Assembly (NCBI GenBank): GCA_965223425.1
Contig: OZ245003.1
Location: forward strand, 2,144,001 to 2,208,000
Origin: Nitrosopumilus sp.
GTDB taxonomy: Archaea > Thermoproteota > Nitrososphaeria > Nitrososphaerales > Nitrosopumilaceae
Reading direction: 5' to 3'
DNA length: 64,000 nt
Part shown: positions 37,647 through 53,493 of the stretch, in pieces
How the letters are laid out: each line of letters opens with the position of its first letter
Position numbering within the stretch: position 1 is the stretch's first letter
Translations under genes and position numbers: made by a program
Notes under the pieces: generated by a model
The model's database searches: none
The model's input: the letters and a program-made list of their open reading frames with translations, nothing else
What the model was told of the DNA's origin: nothing

Positions 37647-38189
37647 CAACATAGTCAAATAAAAAGTGATGTGATTATATACAAATTCAGCATTATTTTG
37701 TTTTATCTTGTACAAAAAGTAGTTCACCCCTTCTCCGAGTATGCAAGGTCGATAAAGAGCAGGCGCACCGACCTTACTGTCACTGGAAACAAGGGTGTGT
37801 GGGTCTGGAAGAAAAGGCTAGGAAGATACACAAGCCTGGAGCATCCAGACACAGTAGATGAAAATGTACTCTTGACTCGCCCGGGATCCAAGTTTTAGAC
37901 CAACTGTGAAAACAATTCGGACAGAAAAAGCAATTGATCAGTGCCCCTGTCATTCCTTATGCTTTACCAAAAAGATCAACTGGGACACCGTCTTGATACG
38001 GCAGGCAAGGCATTTAAAATGTTGCCTGACATTGTAGACGCGGTAGGCCTCAGCTTCTCTGGGAGACACAACGCGCTATACGGCATGGAGGATTTTATAC
38101 GGGCAGTCATATCGATGTGCAAGTCAGGCTCGTATGCCTCCGGCATCACACAGATGCTCTCAGTACGCCACGCCGCGAGCCGCATACCG

Positions 38190-39320
38190 TAGTGACTAGG
38201 ATAAATAACCGCTCATCCTTGTTATCCTGACCTCACGTCTATACAGCATTGTCCATATGGATTCCTTCATCACCTTTGTGCTTTCATACATCACGTTTGC
38301 AGTGGCCCTTCTTAACAGCCTCCACTGCCCCTCCGTGGTATTCAGCTCCGGGGTGTACACGGGCAAGTAAACAAGGACTATGTCGCCGTCATACGAGTCG
38401 ACAAAATCATTGACCATCTTTGACTTGTGGTATGATGCGTTATCAAGAAAGACGATGATCTTGCCGTGCTTGAGATGCAGGTGTCCGAGCATGTCCACAA
38501 AGCTGTAGCTGTTGGCCTTGGCATAGAACCTGCAGTCAAAGCCGCCGTCGTACAGCGCCCCAAACGAGTAGAACCTTTTGCGCGACAGGCTGACTGGAGT
38601 GGTGACGGGCCTGCCCTTGAGGTACCACCCGTTCTTGGTATTCCACCCAATGATAAAGGAGGCCTCATCAACTGTAATCACCGTATGGTCTGGATGGCTC
38701 CGGATTATCTCCCCTGCTTTTTTTTTAAACTCTTTTTTCTCTGATTCTGAGGCTGACTTGGGTGCTTTGGACGCGGCTTTCTGCACGAAAAGCCCATCCT
38801 GTGCAGTATGTCATATATGCTGACAGTGGCATACTGCACGCCGAACTTTTTTCTGATGTGTACGGCCAGCAGCGGTGCCGTCCACACTCCGGACTCGAAC
38901 CCGCAACTGCGCGGGCCTGCCAGCAGGTCTGCGCGCAGCTGTTCTATCTGTTCCGGATCGAGCTTGTTTGGCGCGCCTTTGTTTTTGATGTCGTACCTGC
39001 CGCAGGTGCCAAGCTGTGCGGCGCGCACAAGCCAGTCCCGTACTGTAGAGTATGACCTGTTGAGGGCCCTGCATATCTGGCGTATGGACATGCCCTCCTT
39101 GCGCATGGCATATGCCAGCAGCCTTGCTGCGGCCCTGGGATCTGTCTCCTTTTTTTGCATGCTGCGCAGGCGCGCACTGGAGACGCCGGACAGGAACCTT
39201 CTGTCTGCCGGTATTGCAGAATTGTTGTATTTCATGCGGATTCTGCCATACACTGGGATCTAGATCTTGTGGTTGAATAATGTTGTCTGTTTTGTGAGCG
39301 ATTGTTAATCCAATTCACTA
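38190..39320 (-). mobile_element. IS630-family element
   Basis: Imperfect TIR TAGTGACTAGGATAAATA / TAGTGAATTGGATTAACA; flanked by CG on both sides. Confidence 0.9.
38196..39253 (-). CDS. IS630 transposase in two overlapping frames (HTH and DDE)
   Basis: HTH ORF 38705-39253; DDE ORF 38196-38786 with VDEA, LDNASYH, YTPELNTTE. Confidence 0.88.
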
Positions 39321-40437
39321 CGTCATCGGTGTGGGTTCTGGGGAAGATAAGGGACGCATGTTCTGACAGGCACATCATGGAGAAGAGGTGCCGGGAGATG
39401 GTGCGCAAGACCGTACTGTGCGCAACACAGGCAGGCCTCCTGCGCAGAACCCCGCATGTCATGGCAATTGACACGCACAACATACCGCGGTACGACAGGA
39501 GCTCCGATACCAGAGAAAAACAGCTGGTGCGCTCAAAACACAGGAATGGAACCACCAGGTTTGAGGGATACGCCACGATGCAGTGCGTGGACAGGCCCAA
39601 CCTTGATGTGGCATGCAGGCCCCTCAAAAAGGGGTACAAACCTGCCTGTATCGTGCGTGATCTGCTGCAGGACTGCGCCGATGTGGGGGTTCGGTGCAAA
39701 CTGCTGCTGCTGCTTGACCGCGGATTCTTTTCAAGCGATGTCACAAGGGAGATCCGGCAGGCAGATCACAGATTCATCATGCCGGCATCAAAAACTTTTG
39801 CAATAAAAAGGGCAATACTGGATCACCACGACGGCAAGAGGGATGCAGTCTCCACGCACACGCTTATGACACGCAAGCACAAGCAGGGCCAGTCGTTTCG
39901 GCTGGTCATTGTGGCAAAAAAGAAGGGAGATAGGGGGGGGATGGGATTCGGAGAACACACCGGACAGATATTTGGCGTATGCCACCAACCTTGACTGCCG
40001 TAACCCGCTCTTTGAGACAGAAGGAATTCCAGAGGAGTACAAAAAGAGGCGGGGCATAGAAACGGGGTACCGGGACGCAGAGAGATCAAGGCCCAAAACC
40101 ACCAGCCAGAACGCAGTCATCAGAATATTTCTGTTCTTTATGGCACTTGTAATGTATAATTTGTGGGTAATATCGGCTGCAAGATCCAGGAGATGCAATG
40201 GAGGGCGGCGTGATGTTGCCGTTATTCCTCTGCTGATAATGTTCGAGCTGATGGAAAAATTTTCTGCTGATGTGATTCCTGGCAGGGGGATTTGGCCAGA
40301 ACAGCCGTCTGCCGGCTAGTACATTTTCATCTACTGATGAAATACACGATAATCAAAGCCACTTTTCACATTTTTAACAACATAGTAAAATCATTCATCA
40401 GATTAAAATAATTAGTTTAACAAGTTTCTAAACATCA

Positions 40438-41203: not shown

Positions 41204-41491
41204 ATGGCAGAATATAGAACTCATATGAAAATTATTGGCGACATTCTAGCAACAACTCGAGACGATCTACAAGATGCAGATGGGGCATCAGTTACTTATC
41301 TAATCAGAAAGGCAAACATTTCTCATTCCAGAATTTCGAGAATTTTGAAAACACTAGTGTCACAAGGACTATTAGAACAAGTAGACACTCAAGGTTCAAA
41401 CAAATACAGAATTAGTCAATCGGGTAGAGAATTTCTTCAGGCATATTATACATTTACAAATTTTGCAGATAACTTTGGACTAAGTATCTAG
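41204..41491 (+). CDS. Winged-helix DNA-binding protein
   Basis: YRT.MKIIGDIL...LIRKANISHSR...GREFL; paralogue of 59876-60157. Confidence 0.85.
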   Translation: MAEYRTHMKIIGDILATTRDDLQDADGASVTYLIRKANISHSRISRILKTLVSQGLLEQVDTQGSNKYRISQSGREFLQAYYTFTNFADNFGLSI

Positions 41492-41568
41492 TCATCAGTT
41501 TCTTCAAATTCATCATCAAAATCATCTTCAAAATCTCTATTTTCATAATCAGAAGATGATTCAAACAT
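41488..41568 (-). CDS. 26-aa acidic micro-protein
   Basis: MFESSSDYENRDFEDDFDDEFEETDD; TTTAATAA about 25 bp upstream. Confidence 0.5.
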   Translation of the reverse strand: MFESSSDYENRDFEDDFDDEFEETDD

Positions 41569-41726
41569 GCTTTACAAATGAAAATTCATCATTATTAAAA
41601 ACTTGTTCAAAAGTAAAGTATGAGGTCACCTCCCCTACACTATCTTTGAGACATCATCTGCCAGTGGTTTCGGGGTTGTCGCCAAATTCACATCAAGCTG
41701 CCACCACCTGAATATTTCGCCTTGCG

Positions 41727-43406
41727 GTAACAATTCGGATTTCTGGAGTGAATTTTGGGGTGCCGAAAGAGATAAAGATCACGGCTAGAACACACATGTG
41801 ATGCCGGCGGAGTTTGATCCTACCCGCGTAGACTGGGACAACCAAGACACAAACTATCTCTTTAAGCATTTCAAATCAGTGTTTGATCAGGAGAGAAGAG
41901 AGAGAAAGTCGTTGGAAGAAAAAGTCAAGCAGCAAAATGATACAATCAAGCAGCAAAATGACACAATCAGGCAGCTGGAAGAAGAGAACAGGCAGCTAAG
42001 GACAGGATCCGCAACCCAAAAGCCGGCCAGGAAGGCAAGAAGCTACAATGTGAGAAAATTCAAGGAATATCCGCGGCCAAAAAGCGACAAAAATACCGGG
42101 ATGCGCGGCAGGGAACAGAAGACTGACATCCCAGTCACAGATCACAGGGACGCAGACATTTCATATTGTCCCGGATGCGGTCTCAGACTTGCAGACAGCA
42201 GTACCGATTACGACCGTGACATAACAGACATACAGGACGGCAGGGCGCGCCGCATCAGATGGAGCGTGGCGCGCCGCTACTGCAGGAACTGTAAAACGTC
42301 ACACTCCGCACGCATACCCGGCACCCTGTCCGGCTCTCAGTATGGAATCACGATAATCTCCCAGGTAGTGCTGATGCGTTGCATGGGCATACCGTTTGAA
42401 AGGATAACTGACCTATTTGACATGATATACGGGATACAAATCCCGGGTTCAACGCTGGTCTCCATGTGCGAAAAGGCGGCATGCCAGATGAGGCCCGTCT
42501 ACGACGGACTGCTTGCAGGGATGATTCACAGGGCTCGCGCCATATACGGGGACGAGACCGGATGGTTTCTCAACGGACTGCATTACTGGGTATGGGTTCT
42601 AGTCTCCACGCACGGCGTGATATACCACATATCATCGACGCGCAGCAAGCAGGTGGCAGAGGCACTGGCAGGTGAGTTTGACGGAATTGTAATATCGGAC
42701 TCGTATCTGGCATGGAGTGGAGTAGGCCTGCTACACCAAAAGTGCCTGCTGCACTATTTCAGGGACATGTACAAGACCCTGGAGGAGAGCTGCAGTAACG
42801 AGTTTGCCACATTCTTCAAGAGACTGCACGGCATACTCAAGGATGCCATAGACGCACGGGAAAAGTACGACAGTAATGCGGTTCCAGCAGACGTCACACA
42901 AAGGCTGCAGGACAGGATAGACGCGCTGGCACGGCAGTCATACGACGATGCGGACTGCCGGAGGTACGCAAAAAGGCTCAAAAGGGAGGGGGATCAGCTG
43001 CTGACGTTTCTAGAGCACGGCGTGGAATACCACAACAACAAAAGCGAGAGGGCCCTGAGGATGTTTGCCACCATGCGCAAGGTCAGCTACGGCAGCAGAT
43101 CCGAGAAGGGCATGTACATCACAGAGACGCTGGCAAGCATATACGCCACATGCAGGATGCGCGGTGCAAACCCGTACAGTTTTATCCTGGAATGCCTTGA
43201 CGGCCGCAGAACCGACGGGATTCCCATGGCTTGTCCGGACAAAGCTGCGGCAGTAAAGTGTGTCTGTGCCTAAAACGCCGCAACATCGCGCACACATGTA
43301 TGGGGCTGAGCGGCGTTTTTGCCGATTTTGAACTGTCACTATATAACGGGGCGTGATTTGTCTGTCAAAATAAATCCCCCACAACTCCACAAATCCGAAT
43401 AGTTAC
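41727..43406 (+). mobile_element. IS66-family IS (single-ORF, ISBst12-like)
   Basis: TIR GTAAC(A/T)ATTCGGATTT(C/G)TGGAGT; 8-bp TSD GCCTTGCG (41719-41726, 43407-43414). Confidence 0.95.
41798..43273 (+). CDS. IS66 transposase
   Basis: Coiled coil, CPGCG/CRNC zinc finger, GDETGW, ISDSY, QKCLLH, NNKSERALR. Confidence 0.95.
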   Translation: MMPAEFDPTRVDWDNQDTNYLFKHFKSVFDQERRERKSLEEKVKQQNDTIKQQNDTIRQLEEENRQLRTGSATQKPARKARSYNVRKFKEYPRPKSDKNTGMRGREQKTDIPVTDHRDADISYCPGCGLRLADSSTDYDRDITDIQDGRARRIRWSVARRYCRNCKTSHSARIPGTLSGSQYGITIISQVVLMRCMGIPFERITDLFDMIYGIQIPGSTLVSMCEKAACQMRPVYDGLLAGMIHRARAIYGDETGWFLNGLHYWVWVLVSTHGVIYHISSTRSKQVAEALAGEFDGIVISDSYLAWSGVGLLHQKCLLHYFRDMYKTLEESCSNEFATFFKRLHGILKDAIDAREKYDSNAVPADVTQRLQDRIDALARQSYDDADCRRYAKRLKREGDQLLTFLEHGVEYHNNKSERALRMFATMRKVSYGSRSEKGMYITETLASIYATCRMRGANPYSFILECLDGRRTDGIPMACPDKAAAVKCVCA

Positions 43407-44233
43407 GCCTTGCGGCGCACTCTAGACGGTTTAGCACCTCAAGGTTCCATCCTATTGTCTTGCACAGTCCAAACCGCCTTCTTGTGGATGTCTTTCTGAA
43501 CCTGCACAGCAGCCGGTGGCCCTCTGTCTCCTCTGCTCCAAATATTCCCTCTATCATGCCTCGTTTTTTGTAGATCTCCCCGTCAAACAGCCCTGCGGCC
43601 TTTTTCCTGAACTTTTTTGTTCTGTTCACGGCATTGCCCCTCTGCTTTATGTTCGGGGTCATGCCGGCACCAAAGACAAGCCTGCAGTTCCTATCAGAAT
43701 CATACCCCCTGTCTGCGTTGAACCTGCCTGCAAAGGCAATGCCTGTCTTTTTGATCTTCTTTAGCAGCGAGGCAAAGACTGTAGTGTCTGCCATCCTGTT
43801 GGATGTGATGCGGCAGGAGAGTATGACCTGCAGGCCCAGTACCGAGGCCACGTGCCATTTCAGGTATTTCTTTTGACGCTTTGCCTCCGGTTTGTGCCTG
43901 TTTCTGGCCTTTTTTTGCACCCTTTCATACCTGTCAGTGGCAACGCCGCTGCTGTCTGATGCCAGCGTGAGATCAGAGGCATCAAATCCTGCAAGGCACG
44001 ATGCTGCCGTGACGGCAATCATGTCCTCAAGCCACGCAACAGGAATCTTTTGCATGAACCTGGCAATGGTGCTGTGATCCGGCAGGGGTTCGTTCCACGG
44101 CATCCTCAGCAGGGCTGCAAGATTCTCCATGTCCCTGAATGTAAAGTCAAGGCACACCGTGAGTATGCAGAGAAATGCAAGCTTGTTTTTGTCATGTACC
44201 GGTTTGCGCCCCGCACCAGACCTTCTGGCATGT

Positions 44234-45602
44234 CAGTAGTTCCCAGATGTAGATTTACCGCAACCGCAACTGGCATCGGTTCTACTTGCCTCGATCATTG
44301 ACAAACAACTCGTTTCTGCTTGTAATGTACACGATAAACAACGCCATGGTGAGTTTTTTTCCCGCAGAAGACACTCTTCCATGCCTCTTTCCCGCATCAA
44401 GGCAGAACCTGGCAATCCTCCACAGGTTGTACAGCAGCAGCGGCAGGTAAAACATCAGCAGCCTCACAGACAGGGAGTTGCTGCATGTCCTGCCCATGAT
44501 CTCCTTTATGACGCGAAACCCCGTCTCGATGCCCCATCTCTTGCGGTACTGCTCCGGTATGATGCCTGTCATGGCTCTGGCGCTCCTGATGGGAATGTTT
44601 GTTGCAAACGCAATGTATTGCTCCTCCCCCTCCTCTTCCCCCTCCTTTTTCTTCTTCTTCTTCCTGTCTCTTTTGACAATTACAAGGTTGTAGGTCACAG
44701 TTACGCCGTCTTTGTTGGTCATTGACTGCTGCGATACCTGGCTTGCCTTTCCGTCCTTGTACATCTTGACTATCCTCTTGATCTTGGAGTTCATGATGAC
44801 AGGCATGATGTAGCGGCACCCGCCCTTTCCTGCCTCTGTCATGCAGTCAACGTTGTAAAAGGCGCGGTCGTACAGGAACACAGTCTTTGAGTGTGCGCCC
44901 CCTCTGAGGATTTTCGTGCGTGTTTTGGCTATAAAATCGGCCAGTTTTTCCTTTGCCGGCAGCAGCTGCGATTCCAGGACAATCTGCGAGGAGTCCCTGC
45001 CGACTCCGTGCACTGCGACATACGAGAGAAACGTGGATGTTCCTGCCCTTGGACGCGACTTTCTTGTATGCTCCTGCAGCTGCTCCCCATGGTATGGTAT
45101 GTCCGTAACGTCTATTGCAATGGCGTCGATGTCCTGCAGCATTCCTGCACGGCAGGCGTGCCGCACCGTGCGTGCTAATGTCTTTGCACACCAGGCCTGC
45201 ACGTCTGCCGGTTTGACGCCACGGACTGCAGACATGACCAGGTCTGCATCAGGCGTACGTGCACCCGTGTCTTGAAGCCTGTTGTGCCGTACGAGGGATT
45301 CTACAAACGTGTTTCTCTCAGACGCCTTGATTAGCACGTCCAGTATGTCATTGCATCCGTATACGGCGTTGTGCCTCTCAGACATTGGCATGCCAAGCTT
45401 TTGAAACGACGAGCGCAAGATTTTAAACCGGTTTGATGTTATATTGTACTGGCGTGCGATCAGTTCGTCATGTAATTCGACTTTCATGACATATTGCACG
45501 CCGTAGCCTAATCTGGATCTTTGCATTGCAGTTATGCGGTAACGCACCGGCATCTGGGCATAAACCTACATCTGGGCACAAATCTACATCTGGGAACTAC
45601 TG
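44234..45602 (-). mobile_element. ISH3-family IS, apparently intact
   Basis: 23-bp TIR CAGTAGTTCCCAGATGTAGATTT; 4-bp TSD ATGT (44230-44233, 45603-45606). Confidence 0.95.
44282..45553 (-). CDS. ISH3-family transposase
   Basis: IAIDVTDIPYHG, YDRAFY, YRKRWGIETGFR, YNLW; start uncertain. Confidence 0.9.
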   Translation of the reverse strand: MPVRYRITAMQRSRLGYGVQYVMKVELHDELIARQYNITSNRFKILRSSFQKLGMPMSERHNAVYGCNDILDVLIKASERNTFVESLVRHNRLQDTGARTPDADLVMSAVRGVKPADVQAWCAKTLARTVRHACRAGMLQDIDAIAIDVTDIPYHGEQLQEHTRKSRPRAGTSTFLSYVAVHGVGRDSSQIVLESQLLPAKEKLADFIAKTRTKILRGGAHSKTVFLYDRAFYNVDCMTEAGKGGCRYIMPVIMNSKIKRIVKMYKDGKASQVSQQSMTNKDGVTVTYNLVIVKRDRKKKKKKEGEEEGEEQYIAFATNIPIRSARAMTGIIPEQYRKRWGIETGFRVIKEIMGRTCSNSLSVRLLMFYLPLLLYNLWRIARFCLDAGKRHGRVSSAGKKLTMALFIVYITSRNELFVNDRGK

Positions 45603-45954
45603 ATGTACGGGACACGGATTTTTCACAATCAAAGAAACTATATGGGACGTGAGAAAATCCAGTTCTTGGGTGTGGGCATCGTGATAGTACTTCCAGTACT
45701 GATCACGTCTCTTATGACAATTCATTAGAGAACTCACATCCTCCCTGATCAATATGCGTGAAAAATCACAAAATTAGATCATTTGGTCGAATTTGGCGAC
45801 AACCCCAGTGGTTTCTATGATTATCTGAACTTACTGAAATTTGCTACAGATGCCACCGTTTCAGCCTGCCTGTGCCAAAAAGATGATCAGATTCACGGCG
45901 GGCAGGTCTTTCCTGCCTGTTGTCTGCGCCGTGCACGCCAGCATTGCCGGACGG

Positions 45955-48900
45955 CTATTGCGTCTGGTATATGTCGCCGTACTCCGCATCGCGCAGCTGC
46001 TCCATGAGCGCCGTGTGCCCTGCCATCTTTGCGGCAAACGCGTCGCACAGCCTGTTGTTGACGTCAGTGCAGGCAGTGCCGGTGCTGTGTGCGGGGCCCT
46101 CAAGGTAGTGCCACGTGCCGTACGAGTTTTTCGTCCAGGTGTAACCTAACTGGTCAGTCCACACGTCATTTATCTTGTCTGTCCGCACCAGCTCGTGGGT
46201 TATGATATCAGACTGGGAGGAGTACTTTGTCTGTAGCAGGATGACCATTGGCGGGTTAAGCGACTCCCCTGATATTGCCAGCCCGTCGTTCATGTAGTGG
46301 TTTGTGACGCGGCGCTTGGAGTCCACTGCCTGGATCATGAATGGCTCGTCGTATGTCTGCTCCAGGAACAGGACGCCAGATATCAGGACGGAGATGCAGT
46401 CGTAGTCGTTGTTGCTGTTGTTGTTGTTCTCCTCTCCTTTTGTGGCCGTCGTCGCTGCTGCTCCCGGCTTGACATCGGACATGCACGCCGCAGAATCAAC
46501 AGAGGCTGTGATGCCTGACGCGTCTATTACGGAGCTTGTGCTTCCGCGGCGGACATCATGCGATATTCCTGCCACCTCGTAGGTGGAGTCTGTGGTGTAG
46601 TTGCGTCCCAGATGGACGGTTATGGAGGCCTCTGCGTCAGAGAACGGGGATCCCACTGAGGGCACGCCAAAGCCTACTGCCACCCTGTCAAGGCCCTTTT
46701 CTGCGTATGCCTTTAGCGCAAAGTCGTGCGTGGAGCCGGTCCGTATCTCTGCGCGCTGATAGTCGACGTGGTATGCCAGCACGTCGTGGCACGACCCGTC
46801 CATGGAGTAGCCGCAGGAGACCAGCTTCTGGTTGGTGCTCCAAGAGTTTCCAAAGGTTGGGCGGGTCTTGTGCTCGTTGTCGTCATCGCTGGTGGTGTCA
46901 GGCGCAGAAAGGTTCAGGACAACCCGGAGGTATACGGTGTTGTTGTCTGAGTCAGTACACGAGTATAGGATGGACTGACTGTCTTCTGTGGTTGGATCAT
47001 ACAGGTTCTCATTCTCACTCACGGGCGTAATGTCGCCGTCCTCCGGGTCAGAGCACGTCACGCCCAGATCGGCAAGATCAAAGCCGGTATCGCGGTCCAG
47101 CGTGATGCTGTCAGGCCCGCTTGAGTCGGGGTTTACCGTATACGAGATGACGGGAGGCTCGTTGGGTGGAGGTGGCGTGGTGCCGTCCGGTGGCTGGTTT
47201 GTGTCAGTTATGGTCATGTTGTGCTGTGCAGAGCCTGTGGCGCCGTAGTCGTCAGTTACCTTCAGCGTGATGAGCAGAGAAGTGTCTTCTGCGACCTGGG
47301 GCGCCGTAAATGATGCAGTTTCCTGGTTGCCGCCGGTGATGGTTACTGCCGGGTTGCCGGCAGTCCAGTTGTATGATTGTATGGTGCCGTCAGTGTCAGC
47401 AGAGCCGGTCCCGTCAAGGGTTACCTGCGTTCCCTCTGCTGCCCGGGAAGGCGCGCTGATTGACGCAGTGGGGGGAACGTTGCCGTCCGGTGGTGGTGGT
47501 GGTGGCATTATCGCAGGTTCCGTAACAGTTACGGTCCTGGTTACCGGATCCGGGCTGTTGTACCCGTCTGAGCAGGCATACACCACATCGTACTGGCCTG
47601 CTGCATCCGTGTTCACCGCATCAAGGCCGCTGACTGTGACGGTAATGGGACGGCCAGAGTCAGTGCAGGTTGCCCCGTCATCTGTGTATGTGTCGCCCAC
47701 TGTCAGCGATACGGATGACAAGCCGTTAAGGGAAAGCACGGGTGTCACGGTATCCTCCACATGGACTGCTCTGGTCACGTTTTGCGCGGCAAGCCCGTGT
47801 TGGTCTGTACACGAGTAGGTGTACAAGTACGGAGCTAACGGGATCGTGTCTGTATCCACATTGGAGGAGTTGGTAAGCGTCACGTCATCGCCGTCAGGAT
47901 CGGCGCAGGCTGCCCCGGCATCTGTATACGTGACGTACCTTTCTGCAGTTGCAGGATCCTCGCCGTTTAGGGTGATTGTTGGGGGCCGGTTTACGTCATT
48001 TATGGTCATGGTGTGGTTTGCAGAGCCGGTAGCGCCGTCATCATCAGTTACCACCAGCTTGATGGCCAGCGTGGTGTCCTCTGTGACCGGGGGTGCCGTA
48101 AATGATGCTTCTGCCTTGTCAGCATCAGTTATTGTGATGGACGTGTTGTTGGCAGTCCACGCGTAGAGTGATATGGTGCCGTCATTATCTGTCGAGCCGG
48201 TTCCGTTAAGTGATACCGTTGCTCCCTCTGCTGCCCGGACAGGCGCGCTGATTCTCGCAGTCGGTGGGACGTTGACGTCCGGTAGCGTTGGCGTGACTGT
48301 TGAGGGCTGGTTTATTTCTGTGATCTGTAGGTCAACGGCCTCTGCTATCTTGTTGCCAGAAGCGTCGGCGACTGCGCCATGCCCTATGTCAAGCTGCGGC
48401 GGCGCGGGCGAGAGCTCCGAGTATGCCGTCTTTTGCGCGGAGTCTAGGGTGGCCGTGACGGTTTTACCCACGGTGGATCTTGTGGTTATATCAGAGAATG
48501 TTATGCCCGCCGTGTCTGAGCCTGTTGCGCGGATGTGGATCTTCGTGTAGTTAGTCTCAGTTGCAACCAGTTCCTCGCTGAATGTCATCGTTATGACGCC
48601 CGAGTCTTTGTTGTACGTGGCCGAAGAGAACAGAAGCGCCGCACTGTCAGACGTTGCATTGATGCTGTAGGACGGGCCTATGTTGTACTCGCTCACACGG
48701 TCGCGCAGACTGTCCATCATGAACATCTTGGTGCCGTCAGGCGAGAAGGCGATGTCTTCCGGCACGTTGTCCTGGTTTCGGACCCGGGTGGACTTGTCGC
48801 TGTAGGAGGCAGTGGTGATATCAAAGGCTGTGGAGAGCGCGTACTGGCGCACGGCGCCGAACTCATCGCCCAGCATGAACATCTTGGTGCCGTCAGGCGA

Positions 48901-51900
48901 GAAGGCGATGTTTGCCGGCAGATTGTCCTGGTCTCTGACCACTAAGAACTTGCTGCTGTAGGAGGCGGTGCTGATATCAAAGGCTGTGGAGAGCGCGTAC
49001 TGGCGCACGGCGTCGTGCTCAGTGCCCAGCATGAACATCTTGGTGCCGTCAGGCGAGAAGGCGATGCCTATCGGATCGTTGTCCTGGTCTTTGACCACTA
49101 AGAACTTGCTGCTGTAGGAGCCGGTGCTGACATCAAAGGGTGTGGAGAGCGCGTACTGGCGCACGGCGTCGTGCTGAGTGCCCATCATGAACATCTTGGT
49201 GCCGTCAGGCGAGAAGGCGATGCCTATCTGCGCGTTGTCCTGGCCTTCGACCACTAAGAACTTGCTGCTGTAGGAGGCGGTGCTGACATCAAAGGGTGTG
49301 GAGAGCGCGTACTGGCGCACGGCGCCGTGCTGAGTGCCCATCATGAACATCTTGGTGCCGTCAGGCGAGAAGGCGATGCCTATCGGCTTGTTGTCCTGTG
49401 ACGCGATGAAGGATCTCAAGAACGATGTGCCGTTGGTCAGGTCAAAGGGCTCCGTTATGAAGTTACCTGACCTGTCAGATATCGCGGTGGCGGCTATCTC
49501 TAGGTGCGGGCTGTTCATCGCGATGACTGCCTGTTTGTCTGCTTCTGCCAGCCTGAGGGTAATTGAGCTGGCGGTGACCCCGACAACGGAGTCGCCGGAC
49601 AGGGCCACGACACCCGTGGTGGATCCGGGCTCCCTTATGTATAACTTGAATTTGTTTAGGCTGGAGGAGTCAATGCTCTCGTTGAAGGTGAGGGTCAGTT
49701 GGCCGGTGTCCTTGTCTAGTCCTGCCGAGACCAACCTAGGCCTCATGGAATCCGTAACAGTTACAGTCTGGGTTACCGGATCCGCGCTGTTGTACCCGTC
49801 TGAGCAAGTATACACCACATTGTACTTGGCGGCAACAGCCGTGTTCACCGTATCGCCACTGACTGTGTGAACAATGGTATACTGAAGGCGAGTAAAGAAG
49901 GTGGAAGGTTCACCCAGACCGTCGAGAACGGGACGGCCCGAGTCAACGCATCTTGCCCCTTCCGGGTACGTGTCGCCCACTGCCACTGATACGGATGCCG
50001 AACCGTGAAGGGTAATCACAGGTTTTATGGTATCCACCACAGAGACTGATCTGACCACGTCTTGCGCGGCAAGCCCGTGTTGGTCCGTACACGAGTAGGT
50101 GTACGAGTATGGAGTGCCTGGGATTGTGTCCGTGTCCACAGTGGAGGTGCTGGTAAGCGTTGTATCATCGCCGTGAGGATCGGTGCAGACTGCCCCGGCA
50201 TCTTCATACTCGAAGTACCTTTCTGCCGTTGCAGGGTTGGTGCCGATCAGGGTGATTGTCGGGGGCCGGTTTTCTGTAGCCAAGATGCTGACTATCTGGA
50301 CGCCGTCGTCAACGTTTGCAGCTACCAGGGCGTAGGTGCTGGAGCCCATCTTTACCGTGGTGATGCCCAGTGCGCCGTCAAGCACGTCAAATCTCTCAGT
50401 TTTCCCGTCGACTGTGACGGTTTCCCCGTCAGTAATGGAGGCAGTCGGGAAGGGGGTTGTGGGATTGGTAATGTCGATTATCTGGACGCCGTCGTCAGCG
50501 TTTGCAGTTACCAGGGCGTAGGTGCTGTTGCCTATCTTTACCGTGGTGATGCCCCGTGCGCCGTTAAGCTCGTCAAATCTCTCAGTTTCCCCGTCAGTAA
50601 TGGAGGCAGTCGGGAAGGGGGTTGCGGGATTGGTAATGTCGATTATCTGGACGCCGTTGTCATCTTTTGCTGCAACCAGGGCGTAGGTACTGGAGTCTAT
50701 CTCTACCGTGGTAATGTCCCATGCGCCGTCAAGCTCGTCAAATGTCTTGTTTGTACCGCCGACTGGGACGGTTTCCCCGTCAGTAATGGAGGCAGTCGGG
50801 AAGGGGGTTGCGGGATTGGTAATGTTGATTATCTGGACGCCGTCGTCAGCGTTTGCAGCTACCAGGGCGTAGGTGCTGTTGCCTATCTTTACCGTGGTGA
50901 TGCCCAGTGCGCCGTCAAGCACGTCAAATGTCTTGTTTGTACCGCCGACTGGGACGGTTTTCCCGTCAGTAATGGAGGCAGTCGGGAAGGGGGTTGCGGG
51001 ATTGGTAATGTCGATTATCTGGACGCCGTCGTCAGCGTTTGCTGCAACCAGGGCGTAGGTACTGGAGTCTATCTCTACTGTGGTAATGTCCCATGCGCCG
51101 TCAAGCACGTCAAATGTCTTGTTTGTACCGCCGACTGGGACGGTTTCCCCGTCAGTAATGGAGGCAGTCGGGAAGGGGGTTGTGGGATTGGTAATGTCGA
51201 TTATCTGGACGCCGTCGTCACGGAATGATGAGACCAGGGCGTAGGTACTGGAGTCTATCTCTACCGTGGTGATGCCCCGTGCGCCGTCAAGCTCGTCAAA
51301 TGTCTTGTTTGTACCGCCGACTGGGACGGTTTCCCCGTCAGTAATGGAGGCAGTCGGGAAGGGGGTTGCGGGATTGGTAATGTCGATTATCTGGACGCCG
51401 TCGTCAGCGTTTGCTGCAACCAGGGCGTAGGTACTGGAGTCTATCTCTACCGTGGTGATGCCCCGTGCGCCGTCAAGCTCGTCAAATGTCTTGTTTGTAC
51501 CGCCGACTGGGACGGTTTCCCCGTCAGTAATGGAGGTGATCGGAGCAACGTCGAGGTACTGTAGTGGTTTTACGTCAGTTATGGTGATGTTTTCTACCTG
51601 AAATACAGGTGAGATGCCGTAAAACGGATGCGTGTCACTTTTTAGATCCTGTATAGGACTGGTGAGCGGGCCATTATCAGCATTGTTTGGAAGTCCAGCT
51701 CGCACCATGTCAGCGCCAAGGGGTGCGGTGCCGTGTTTTGTCCCATCTGCATTAGAACCAGTAAACACGGCTGATGTAGCATCAGAACCAAACAGGAATA
51801 CGTTTCCGTTCTCGTCCCGCGCGGATCTCTCCTCATTCCATGATCCGTCGTAAAAGTCCTGATAGTTGTCTGCCACCTTTGCGCCGCCTAGCCAGTAGAT

Positions 51901-52281
51901 TGGGGGGCCCTTGTCTGTACTGTTATAGGTGGTACCGGTGTGGTCGCGCGCACTGACTGCACCTGTACTGCCCACCACCTTGAATGACGAGCTGTGTTCT
52001 TGGATGTCTGTATGGCCTGCCGCTACGAGGCCTTGGATGTACGTGTCATATACTGTAATGTCAGTAGGTACGGCGTTGTGTTTAGTTGATGTCGCGATAA
52101 GCAGCCTGAACTGGTCCCCCTCACCAAGGCCCGAGGGTATCAGGCCCCAGTCTGTCGGAACAGACGTTGCATCCGTCGCAGCATCTGCAAGGGGGATGCA
52201 AAGTGGAATCAAAAGAACAAGTGCCGCTATTGCTACTGCTGTCGTTGTTGCAGGCAACGGCGGTTTTATCAATCGTTGCAA
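45955..52281 (-). CDS. 2108-aa secreted modular surface protein: lectin-like N-domain, LVIVD-like propeller, DUF5011-like Ig domains, second propeller, 2 PKD-like domains, C-terminal domain
   Basis: Signal peptide; AGGAGA before TTG; repeats GVQIIDITNP x7, IAFSPDGTKMF x5, PTITL.G...Y.C.D, DG.I..Y.W. Confidence 0.9.
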   Translation of the reverse strand: MQRLIKPPLPATTTAVAIAALVLLIPLCIPLADAATDATSVPTDWGLIPSGLGEGDQFRLLIATSTKHNAVPTDITVYDTYIQGLVAAGHTDIQEHSSSFKVVGSTGAVSARDHTGTTYNSTDKGPPIYWLGGAKVADNYQDFYDGSWNEERSARDENGNVFLFGSDATSAVFTGSNADGTKHGTAPLGADMVRAGLPNNADNGPLTSPIQDLKSDTHPFYGISPVFQVENITITDVKPLQYLDVAPITSITDGETVPVGGTNKTFDELDGARGITTVEIDSSTYALVAANADDGVQIIDITNPATPFPTASITDGETVPVGGTNKTFDELDGARGITTVEIDSSTYALVSSFRDDGVQIIDITNPTTPFPTASITDGETVPVGGTNKTFDVLDGAWDITTVEIDSSTYALVAANADDGVQIIDITNPATPFPTASITDGKTVPVGGTNKTFDVLDGALGITTVKIGNSTYALVAANADDGVQIINITNPATPFPTASITDGETVPVGGTNKTFDELDGAWDITTVEIDSSTYALVAAKDDNGVQIIDITNPATPFPTASITDGETERFDELNGARGITTVKIGNSTYALVTANADDGVQIIDITNPTTPFPTASITDGETVTVDGKTERFDVLDGALGITTVKMGSSTYALVAANVDDGVQIVSILATENRPPTITLIGTNPATAERYFEYEDAGAVCTDPHGDDTTLTSTSTVDTDTIPGTPYSYTYSCTDQHGLAAQDVVRSVSVVDTIKPVITLHGSASVSVAVGDTYPEGARCVDSGRPVLDGLGEPSTFFTRLQYTIVHTVSGDTVNTAVAAKYNVVYTCSDGYNSADPVTQTVTVTDSMRPRLVSAGLDKDTGQLTLTFNESIDSSSLNKFKLYIREPGSTTGVVALSGDSVVGVTASSITLRLAEADKQAVIAMNSPHLEIAATAISDRSGNFITEPFDLTNGTSFLRSFIASQDNKPIGIAFSPDGTKMFMMGTQHGAVRQYALSTPFDVSTASYSSKFLVVEGQDNAQIGIAFSPDGTKMFMMGTQHDAVRQYALSTPFDVSTGSYSSKFLVVKDQDNDPIGIAFSPDGTKMFMLGTEHDAVRQYALSTAFDISTASYSSKFLVVRDQDNLPANIAFSPDGTKMFMLGDEFGAVRQYALSTAFDITTASYSDKSTRVRNQDNVPEDIAFSPDGTKMFMMDSLRDRVSEYNIGPSYSINATSDSAALLFSSATYNKDSGVITMTFSEELVATETNYTKIHIRATGSDTAGITFSDITTRSTVGKTVTATLDSAQKTAYSELSPAPPQLDIGHGAVADASGNKIAEAVDLQITEINQPSTVTPTLPDVNVPPTARISAPVRAAEGATVSLNGTGSTDNDGTISLYAWTANNTSITITDADKAEASFTAPPVTEDTTLAIKLVVTDDDGATGSANHTMTINDVNRPPTITLNGEDPATAERYVTYTDAGAACADPDGDDVTLTNSSNVDTDTIPLAPYLYTYSCTDQHGLAAQNVTRAVHVEDTVTPVLSLNGLSSVSLTVGDTYTDDGATCTDSGRPITVTVSGLDAVNTDAAGQYDVVYACSDGYNSPDPVTRTVTVTEPAIMPPPPPPDGNVPPTASISAPSRAAEGTQVTLDGTGSADTDGTIQSYNWTAGNPAVTITGGNQETASFTAPQVAEDTSLLITLKVTDDYGATGSAQHNMTITDTNQPPDGTTPPPPNEPPVISYTVNPDSSGPDSITLDRDTGFDLADLGVTCSDPEDGDITPVSENENLYDPTTEDSQSILYSCTDSDNNTVYLRVVLNLSAPDTTSDDDNEHKTRPTFGNSWSTNQKLVSCGYSMDGSCHDVLAYHVDYQRAEIRTGSTHDFALKAYAEKGLDRVAVGFGVPSVGSPFSDAEASITVHLGRNYTTDSTYEVAGISHDVRRGSTSSVIDASGITASVDSAACMSDVKPGAAATTATKGEENNNNSNNDYDCISVLISGVLFLEQTYDEPFMIQAVDSKRRVTNHYMNDGLAISGESLNPPMVILLQTKYSSQSDIITHELVRTDKINDVWTDQLGYTWTKNSYGTWHYLEGPAHSTGTACTDVNNRLCDAFAAKMAGHTALMEQLRDAEYGDIYQTQ
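48690..49395. repeat. 156-bp (52-aa) tandem repeat x5
   Basis: gaacatcttggtgccgtcaggcgagaaggcgatg recurs every 156 bp. Confidence 0.95.
50290..51540. repeat. 186-bp (62-aa) tandem repeat x7, one unit shortened
   Basis: cccgtcagtaatggagg recurs at about 186-bp spacing. Confidence 0.95.
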
Positions 52282-52343
52282 CTGTCAGACTCTCCTGTCC
52301 TCTCCTTCTCCCAATACCATTACTGCTGCTAATCCTTCCTCCA

Positions 52344-52358
52344 CCCCCCCCCCCCCCC
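52344..52358. repeat. C15 homopolymer upstream of the surface-protein gene
   Basis: 15 consecutive C, 63-77 bp upstream of the start codon. Confidence 0.9.
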
Positions 52359-52515
52359 GATGTCAGGCAACATTGTGGCAGGGAAGGCAAGATTACTGCA
52401 GGAATGACAGAGGCGCAATACGGCTAGCGACGGCTTCTTGAAAGCAGATAACTGAAAGGTGTGACTCAACAACTTGATGCTTTTGTTTTGATATTTATGT
52501 ATTTTTTTCAGATTC

Positions 52516-52655
52516 CAGTCTTCCCAGAAGTACTTCGTAGAGATTACCAAGAGGAGAAACTTTCTACTACAAAGAATCACACGCACCCAGAATCTGTAGA
52601 ATCACGGATTACTGGTTATAGTTCAGAGGAAAACTTGGTACTTCTGGGAAGACTG
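52516..52655. mobile_element. MITE-A copy 2, inverted relative to copy 1
   Basis: 140 bp, same 18-bp TIR, about 3 substitutions versus 4421-4560; flanks GATTC/AACCC differ. Confidence 0.95.
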
Positions 52656-52660
52656 AACCC

Positions 52661-52756
52661 CAGTTAAGCGAAATGCCTCAAATCTGAGATCAGATCAGCG
52701 GTTTGGTTCTGCACATGAGAGTGGTTTCCTTAATCAGGGTACATTTCGCTTAGCTG
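52661..52756. mobile_element. MITE-B (96 bp)
   Basis: 14/15-bp TIR CAGTTAAGCGAAATG / CATTTCGCTTAGCTG; no TSD. Confidence 0.75.
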
Positions 52757-52765
52757 ACTTGCAGC

Positions 52766-52856
52766 GTATGAGGTCACCTGTTCCCCTATCCAAGCACGAG
52801 TTTGTATCATCAGAAACATTTCCACGCCTGACTTCAGGGGGCAGGTGACCTCATAC
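52766..52856. mobile_element. MITE-C (91 bp), forming the right end of the cargo transposon
   Basis: Perfect 15-bp TIR GTATGAGGTCACCTG. Confidence 0.88.
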
Positions 52857-52893
52857 AAAGTAAATGGTAATAAAACAAAAAAGAATAGAATAT

Positions 52894-53493
52894 GTGTTGA
52901 AAGTAAGTTGTAACGAAAAAGGAATTGAAAAAGCATTTCAAATTATTGATCAGGGGGGAATTGCAGTTTTTCCAACAGATACGGTGTATGGAATAGGATG
53001 TAACCCATACAACAAAGATTCAATAAAAAAAATTTACGAAATTAAATCCAGAGATATATCAAAACCATTACCAGTTTTAGCATATTCAAAAGAGGTTGCA
53101 GAACAAATTGTCTTTTTTGATGAATTTTCTAAAAAAATTGTAGAAAAATTTTGGCCTGGATCATTGACAATTATTTTGAAACTAAAAGATCAAAATTTAA
53201 AAGAATCATTAAATTTAATTGATAAAATTGCTATAAGAGTTCCCAACCATGACTGTACATTAGAATTATTGAAAAAGTGTAATTTTCTGGTAGGTACTAG
53301 TGCAAATATTTCAGGACAGCCACCATTTACAGATCCTGATGAGTGTTCGAATAATCTTCAAAAATATGATATTCTGGTAGATGGTGGCATAATCGAAAGT
53401 AAAACAGAATCAACAATAATTGAAATAGAAAATGACGAAATCAAAATCATTCGAGAAGGTTCATTGAGTAGAGAAGAAATCTTAGAAAAATGA
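52894..53493 (+). CDS. sua5: Threonylcarbamoyl-AMP synthase (Sua5/TsaC)
   Basis: FPTDTVYG, K.R...KP, WPGSLT, TSANISG; start GTG/TTG at 52894/52897. Confidence 0.93.
   Translation: MLKVSCNEKGIEKAFQIIDQGGIAVFPTDTVYGIGCNPYNKDSIKKIYEIKSRDISKPLPVLAYSKEVAEQIVFFDEFSKKIVEKFWPGSLTIILKLKDQNLKESLNLIDKIAIRVPNHDCTLELLKKCNFLVGTSANISGQPPFTDPDECSNNLQKYDILVDGGIIESKTESTIIEIENDEIKIIREGSLSREEILEK

Follow-up and report, generated by a model that had tools for sequence, protein, structure and literature searches.

Composite transposons of the Tn5/Tn10 type consist of DNA flanked by two full insertion sequences (IS), with the transposase encoded in cis by one or both of them. Mobile insertion cassettes, as described together with an Aeromonas plasmid example that hosts a nested MITE (a miniature transposable element with inverted repeats), are passenger genes surrounded by IS-type inverted repeats, and encode no transposase (PMC5444012). 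In the Pseudomonas elements called TIME-COMP two Tn3-derived MITEs flank and mobilise genomic DNA, as described for assays with trap plasmids (PMC4133298). A recent survey of archaeal IS deals with MITEs in passing, and the terms searched in it return no mention of passenger genes or composite elements (PMC13343696). This work deals with a 64,000-nt stretch of DNA, hereafter the window, from the ammonia-oxidising archaeon Nitrosopumilus sp. (assembly GCA_965223425.1, contig OZ245003.1, C1:2144001-2208000). The stretch hosts an 11,239-bp element, located at 41618-52856, which is probably a non-autonomous composite transposon with IS66-type ends that moved a giant surface-protein gene in one event. 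Coordinates without prefix are window positions; the prefix C1: marks positions on the chromosome contig. The genome, labelled G000, consists of 2 contigs totalling 2,637,967 bp, and is 99.99% complete by marker genes.

Ends and target duplication

The 14-bp sequence GTATGAGGTCACCT is found at 41618-41631 (plus strand), 52766-52779 (plus) and 52843-52856 (minus). No further match occurs in the window at up to 2 mismatches, and exact copies are confined to these three places genome-wide. In shuffled sequence the mean number of matches was 0.13, and none of 100 shuffles reached three. The two outermost copies are the terminal inverted repeats (TIRs) of the element. Their 14-bp ends are identical, their arms are complementary along 18 nt but for one mismatch, and their tips delimit 11,239 bp. 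The 8-bp sequence AAAGTAAA is directly repeated immediately outside both TIRs, and the left (41610-41617) and right (52857-52864) copies are identical; the right copy lies directly before a conserved A/T-rich box upstream of sua5. GC content is 0.52-0.59 within the element, and 0.28-0.33 in the flanks.

The locus is empty in all the relatives compared. A Sua5 search in 41 genomes returned loci from 19 relatives, and in all 19 the genes orf214, wHTH, sua5 and orf173 are contiguous, with a wHTH-sua5 spacer of 90-170 bp. If the element and one repeat are taken out of the window, 125 bp remain. Exactly one AAAGTAAA is found at the homologous spot in 10 of the 19 relatives, including the closest, G007 (...TTATTCAAAAAGTAAATGATAATTAAAC...), while the others host variants differing by 1-3 nt or, in one case, have a shorter spacer. 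These assignments were judged by eye; a script anchored correctly on 11 loci, and found 9 of them exact. The paired repeats 11,239 bp apart and their exact duplication had been noticed in a sequence-only reading of this DNA, which pointed to the wHTH-sua5 interval of relatives as the place where an empty site should be sought, and the comparison bears out both. The abutting inverted ends, the flanking repeats of IS-type length, and the empty site carrying a single AAAGTAAA all argue for one insertion event, and the 11,239 bp appear to have entered by a single transposition.

The two ends are of unlike origin. The left end consists of a TIR followed by 40 bp of unique subterminal sequence (41618-41671, plus), and resumes beyond a nested block with the remaining unique sequence (45816-45863, plus), up to the onset of homology to paralogues of the cargo gene. 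It carries one TIR only, lacks an inner TIR, and has a subterminal sequence with no other copy in the genome. To judge from this organization, it represents a solo end of IS66 type and not a MITE. The right end is crowded by miniature elements. MITE-A (52516-52655) spans 140 bp, has perfect 18-bp TIRs CAGTCTTCCCAGAAGTAC, and has many other copies in the genome. MITE-B (52661-52756) is 96 bp long, carries the TIR CAGYTAAGCGAAATG, and belongs to an ISH3-type family associated with 5-bp duplications. A 9-bp spacer separates MITE-B from MITE-C (52766-52856), a complete 91-bp MITE in which both TIRs are GTATGAGGTCACCT, as already recognised in the sequence-only reading. The outer TIR of MITE-C is the right end of the element. 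Since the inner flank of MITE-C, CTTGCAGC, differs from AAAGTAAA, MITE-C did not insert here alone. IS-type terminal inverted repeats are thus found at both ends, and a complete MITE at the right end only.

The IS66 family and the search for a transposase

To assess the family of the outer ends, the 14-mer was searched at two levels. Among 151 genomes of the genus, G000 being one of them, 6 carry exact copies; a sample of 401 genomes from the order yielded 7 with exact copies. The congener G149 carries 22 exact copies; with up to 2 mismatches allowed the number rises to 137, while a reversed control gives 16. They mark 1.63-kb IS copies with exact 14-bp ends, and many MITEs of about 93 bp, one of which is homologous to MITE-C (74% identity, E 1.1e-5). 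The subterminal sequence at the left end of the window element is only weakly like the left ends of these IS. One representative (G149:C1:1962661-1964296) is 1,636 bp long, is flanked by the 8-bp duplication ATCTCAAG, and encodes a 512-aa transposase matching PF03050 (4e-38) and the NCBIfam IS66 model NF033517 with 200.8 bits, above the cut-off of 180. As an IS with identical 14-bp ends encodes an IS66-type DDE transposase, the outer ends belong to the IS66 family. This assignment, together with the 8-bp duplication, had previously been proposed on the basis of the terminal nucleotides.

A related IS resides in the genome under study. At C1:1529633-1531158, a 1,526-bp IS with the ends GTATGAATTCACCT and GTATGAGTTCACCT, flanked by the 8-bp duplication CAATCATC, encodes a 476-aa transposase (PF03050, 1e-27; NF033517, 154 bits, below the cut-off). 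Further copies of this IS are frameshifted or interrupted. An 80-bp MITE (C1:2012427-2012506) has akin ends, and the 8-bp duplication AATAAATT. The genome carries in addition many IS66-family copies of several subgroups, and several MITE families.

Classical IS66 members carry the accessory genes tnpA and tnpB. Neither was found by a survey of open reading frames (ORFs) in the 1.6-kb IS copies of G149 or the 1.5-kb copies of G000. In each there is one non-nested long ORF, of 512 and 476 aa respectively, and the two other ORFs of at least 150 aa in the G149 IS overlap the 512-aa ORF in another frame or on the other strand. This organization fits the single-ORF subgroup of IS66, which we take to be the ISBst12-like grouping of ISfinder.

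A survey of ORFs and Pfam domains identified no transposase fitting the outer ends inside the element, the nested IS being excluded by their TIRs. The passenger gene is thus accompanied by no end-matching transposase. Two enzymes are candidates by their ends, the 512-aa protein of G149 (14 of 14 bases) and the 476-aa protein of G000 (13 of 14), the latter 36% identical to the former. The expectation that the cognate transposase lies elsewhere holds to the extent that an IS with exactly these ends exists in a congener; within the genome itself only the 13/14 relative was found. Given the absence of the exactly cognate enzyme from the assembly, presumably either this relative can act on the ends, or the move dates to a time at which a cognate IS was present.

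Nested insertions

An IS5-like element of 4,135 bp (41672-45806, minus), with perfect 18-bp TIRs GGGGTTGTCGCCAAATTC, sits 54 bp from the left tip of the composite element. It is a separate insertion, as already maintained in the sequence-only reading, because it has its own TIRs and its own 9-bp duplication AGTGGTTTC (copies at 41663-41671 and 45807-45815). Removal of this block and of one copy of its duplication leaves 7,095 bp with one long gene, the 2,108-aa ORF. The IS5-like transposase is a remnant (43339-44157, minus), detected by Pfam PF01609 (4e-9) and by the NCBIfam IS5 model (2e-21, below cut-off).

Two further IS are lodged inside the IS5-like element. The first (41727-43406, plus) is an IS66-family member with the TIR GTAACAATTCGGATTTCTGGAGT and the 8-bp duplication GCCTTGCG, and is found in five further places of the genome, at full length and with at least 99.6% protein identity. 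The second (44234-45602, minus) is ISH3-like, has the perfect 23-bp TIR CAGTAGTTCCCAGATGTAGATTT and the 4-bp duplication ATGT, and encodes a 423-aa transposase (44282-45553) matching the NCBIfam ISH3 model (1.8e-39, below cut-off) and Pfam PF01609 (6e-12). We infer the order of these nested insertions.

The 491-aa transposase of the nested IS66 (41798-43273; PF03050, 7e-34) is encoded 180 bp inside the left TIR of the composite element, and was considered as its possible owner. It was rejected, as the nested IS has its own TIRs and duplication and resides inside the IS5-like element. Its TIRs begin with GTAACAATTCGG and differ from the outer GTATGAGGTCACCT ends, and its transposase is 23% identical to the G149 enzyme, in line with the earlier view that the nested IS66 is unrelated to the outer ends. 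More generally, all the transposase genes found inside the outer ends belong to nested IS with TIRs and duplications of their own.

The cargo gene and its family

The cargo gene (45955-52281, minus) has a TTG start, and encodes a 2,108-aa giant secreted or surface protein with Ig-like, PKD and beta-propeller repeats. Its N-terminus is hydrophobic and signal-like, and a membrane anchor at the C-terminus is lacking. The gene belongs to a set of 12 giant chromosomal paralogues, ranging from 1,484 to 7,841 codons. The terminal 2.1 kb at its 3' side are 96% identical to C1:1344077-1346213, the last 646 bp reaching 99.5%, and the 600 bp upstream are 91% identical to C1:535292-535886. Homology to paralogues ends at about 45864 and at 52756, the latter being the outer end of MITE-B, thus just inside the end sequences on either side. 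A full-length orthologue was not detected in any of the 150 other genomes of the genus; the best matches reached 66-73% identity across stretches of repeat domains not exceeding about 450 aa, and no near-identical DNA was found.

The abrupt switch from AT-rich to GC-rich DNA was considered as a sign of foreign origin, and this view was rejected. All 12 paralogues have a GC content of 0.53-0.57 wherever they are located, while their flanks range from about 0.32 to 0.52, mostly 0.35-0.46. As the whole family is GC-rich, the switch in composition is a trait of the gene family. On the evidence of these comparisons, the cargo derives from the resident 12-member family, and is not foreign. In the chromosome at large, about 17% of the 2-kb windows have a GC content of at least 0.475, the main peak being at 0.35-0.40, and the genome is about 0.7 Mb larger than that of G007, the closest relative searched.

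A tract of 15 G on the coding strand (52344-52358, minus) lies 63-77 nt upstream of the TTG start. Tracts of 11-16 G are found in all 12 paralogues, about 60-75 nt upstream of the start, and 9 of the 13 chromosomal runs of at least 12 G or C are tracts upstream of family genes. Such tracts suggest possible slipped-strand phase variation, and raise the possibility of phase-variable surface proteins in Archaea.

Other giant-gene insertions

Two additional members of the family reside in transposase-less insertions bounded by MITE-B sequences. The first (C1:535292-547957) is 12,666 bp long, is bounded by two complete MITE-B copies with TTTAA outside each of them, and its only gene spans about 3,900 codons. 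The genes flanking it are adjacent in the loci of 14 of 15 relatives, with a 74-76-bp spacer hosting a single TTTAA; the fifteenth locus did not cover both flanks. The second (C1:728928-739403), 10,476 bp in length, terminates in a MITE-B TIR at either side, is flanked by a TTGGTT direct repeat, and its only gene is a 3,219-codon giant gene. It is located between NAD kinase and rhodanese genes, which are adjacent in all 15 relatives' loci and separated by 85-91 bp in 13. An unrelated MITE of about 84 bp (TIR CCGTAGTGTCTTTG) lies right beside this insertion. The notion that MITE ends capture giant surface genes is thus extended by two insertions which involve a MITE of the ISH3 kind; at the locus in the window it applies to the right end only, the left end being solo.

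Exact 5-bp repeats flank 5 of 15 complete MITE-B copies, among the matches listed; the 15 include both ends of C1:535292-547957, and the copy inside the window element. C1:535292-547957 and C1:728928-739403 share about 90% identity at their right ends, MITE-B included, so that MITE-B is part of a repeated unit. MITE-B ends also delimit an element some 1.25 kb long, present at C1:972440-973687, at 2375021-2376268 and at three further places. Its split ORFs show weak matches to the NCBIfam ISH3 model (1e-11 and 1.6e-5), far below cut-off, and none to Pfam. By its ends and these matches, it is probably a decayed autonomous partner of MITE-B. One of the copies abuts the upstream side of the giant paralogue at 973918-985692.

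Around the other nine paralogues, no convincing combination of TIR and duplication was found within 6 kb, the search being based on an exact 11-nt seed which misses degenerate ends. Two other loci are worth recording. At C1:792900-794483 about 1.4 kb containing a 298-aa ORF lie between two MITE-B copies, and TCTAA is present on both sides; by its layout this looks like a small MITE-B composite. A 9.1-kb unit (C1:1892824-1901882) has 20-nt inverted ends beginning GGTTCTGTGAAG, matching at 18 of 20 positions, and the 8-bp repeat GGAGTTCT. It carries a 907-aa Ig/HYR/cadherin-like ORF, a 1,056-aa ORF with a TrwB-like ATPase domain, and two ORFs with no Pfam match, and may represent another IS-ended cargo element.

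The insertion site

The left flanking gene (41204-41491, plus) encodes a winged-helix (wHTH) regulator (PF14947, 4e-11), and the right one (52864-53493, plus) a protein of the sua5/yrdC family (PF01300, 2e-53). Translation of the latter may in fact begin about 10 codons downstream, at an in-frame GTG or TTG. The target of the insertion is the conserved A/T-rich box directly upstream of sua5, which remains intact on the sua5 side because 8 bp were duplicated. A 26-codon, very acidic ORF (41488-41568, minus), conserved in most of the relatives' spacers, lies between wHTH and sua5, on the strand opposite to sua5, and the insertion point is about 50 bp upstream of its start. The A/T-rich box is a candidate promoter element, in what is apparently a divergent promoter region. 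A second GC-rich block in the window (38000-40300, GC 0.50-0.59) is IS material, and hosts a DDE_3 (IS630-like) transposase ORF at 38196-38786.

Origin of the element

The following scenario is proposed. A giant gene and its upstream region would have become bounded by a solo IS66-family end on one side and by a 91-bp IS66-derived MITE on the other. An IS66-family DDE transposase, plausibly supplied in trans by one of the candidates described, would have acted on the two outermost inverted ends, and everything between them would have moved at once into the A/T-rich box between wHTH and sua5, with duplication of the 8-bp AAAGTAAA. The cargo would have been taken from the resident 12-member family, and one MITE of the ISH3-type pair, MITE-B, would have been kept inside the new right end. 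The retention of MITE-B just inside an IS66-type right end suggests that the cassette changed its mobilising ends.

Several observations weigh against such a scenario. The TIRs match over a short stretch only, 14 nt, or 18 nt if one mismatch is allowed. The left end beyond the TIR bears little likeness to known IS ends, and does not amount to a MITE. A genome of the completeness given above revealed no transposase whose ends match exactly, and the element may have moved in an ancestor, or be immobile now. The nested IS5-like block may have been aboard at the time of the move, or may have come later. Finally, there is one copy of the element only, so that movement as a unit rests on one insertion. 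Scans of the genome and metagenome contigs for exact matches to the 38-nt MITE-B/MITE-C junction, and to the 30-nt outer end of MITE-C, revealed no second copy. Likewise, neither a 41617-to-52857 nor an end-to-end joint was among those listed for the contigs assembled from four sequencing runs, which drop rare variants.

The strongest competing explanation, still an improbable one, is that a small IS66-type element first inserted at AAAGTAAA, and that the giant gene entered it later, by insertion or by recombination with a paralogue, the transposase being subsequently lost; the TIRs would then never have moved the gene. That the family recombines or converts is supported by the 99.5% identity of the last 646 bp of the cargo to a paralogue, as opposed to 75-96% for the rest. 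Just inside the right end there is a MITE-B, of the kind found at the boundaries of other family members, and the left end resembles an IS left end more than a MITE. In contrast, the cargo has a MITE-B TIR on one side only, with no surrounding 5-bp duplication. As the right terminus, a complete MITE, has an inner TIR of its own, a pre-existing element would have had to possess three ends. Between the ends, no remnant of a matching transposase gene was found.

Very little speaks for a chance occurrence of inverted and direct repeats around a GC-rich block which arrived by site-specific integration, homologous recombination or another route. Admittedly, the AAAGTAAA repeat is A/T-rich and lies within an A/T-rich spacer, and GC-rich giant genes reside at 11 other places, 9 of them with no detectable TIR-plus-duplication signature. 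Yet three TIR copies never occurred in the shuffled sequences, and the repeats abut the TIRs exactly. A genome-wide search for 11-nt inverted ends with an identical 8-bp flank returned 208 pairs, most of them artefacts due to 8-mer palindromes within inverted copies of IS; where the flank is non-palindromic, the outer TIR pair stands beside ordinary, bona fide IS and MITE copies. Moreover, 8 bp is the length of the duplication made by IS with these ends, and the survey of ORFs and Pfam domains detected neither an integrase nor a tRNA target in the region.

An assembly artefact, in which a GC-rich contig was misjoined into an AT-rich chromosome, might be imagined from the abrupt change in composition and the abundance of multi-copy IS in the region, but has a negligible probability, as a misjoin would not yield a TIR pair with an 8-bp duplication collapsing to the relatives' sequence, and contigs from runs of three study labels, one of which may be source data of the assembly, cross the junctions with 0 differences (X1 and X2 both junctions, X4 the left one).

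The transposition of the giant gene between IS66-type ends thus remains the preferred reading. A broader view can be entertained as a speculation more doubtful than likely. The 12 giant genes might form a mobile contingency-gene system, in which cassettes bounded by miniature IS ends are moved by any matching resident transposase, replace their ends in time, and are switched by poly-G tracts. If so, end replacement would allow the family to stay mobile through the turnover of IS families, and transposition and slipped-strand switching would together diversify the cell surface.

Comparison with known systems

The biology of mobile elements has been little described in ammonia-oxidising archaea. 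The locus offers a clean and datable case of a gene moved by borrowed transposon ends in one of these organisms, as insertion, duplication and empty site are all visible. The three elements, with two types of ends, provide a concrete mechanism for the growth of a giant surface-gene family to 12 copies, and a hitch-hiking transposon seems to have helped spread the family.

The ends and the 8-bp duplication link the window element to single-ORF members of IS66, which have GTA ends, duplicate 8 bp, and in the end-sharing copies encode a transposase matching PF03050 and NF033517. It differs from them in lacking a matching transposase, and is not an IS. As in Tn5 and Tn10, the DNA between two flanking elements would be moved by way of their outermost ends; in those transposons, however, two full IS copies are present, and the transposase is provided in cis.

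Mobile insertion cassettes are close counterparts. Here, the ends are of the IS66 family, the host is an archaeon, the passenger is a 6.3-kb giant surface gene, and the two ends are of unlike origin, one a solo IS end and the other a complete MITE. MIC231 of Bacillus cereus is presumably a further example of such cassettes. The qnrS2 cassette of Aeromonas IncU plasmids, as described, shares with the window element IS-type repeats, a passenger gene, a target duplication and the lack of a transposase of its own, and cassettes of this type are there thought to be moved in trans by related IS (PMC5444012). No archaeal mobile insertion cassette is indicated in the titles and abstract openings of the searched literature pairing the term with Archaea.

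TIME-COMP elements, as described, are alike in that miniature non-autonomous elements move the flanked DNA as a unit with no need to encode a transposase, and differ in belonging to the Tn3 family, in having 38-bp inverted repeats and 5-6-bp duplications, in residing in bacteria, and in that their transposition has been demonstrated (PMC4133298). Their architecture is common to C1:535292-547957, which has a complete MITE at each end, and to C1:728928-739403, whereas in the window element only the right end is a MITE, and a single insertion is the basis for deducing that it moved. In respect of novelty the sequence-only reading is overstated: the mechanism corresponds to that of bacterial mobile insertion cassettes and MITE-composite transposons, and the way of transposing is already known from bacteria. 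What differs from the known cases is the IS family, IS66 in the window element and ISH3-like in the other two, the archaeal host, the unlike ends and the cargo.

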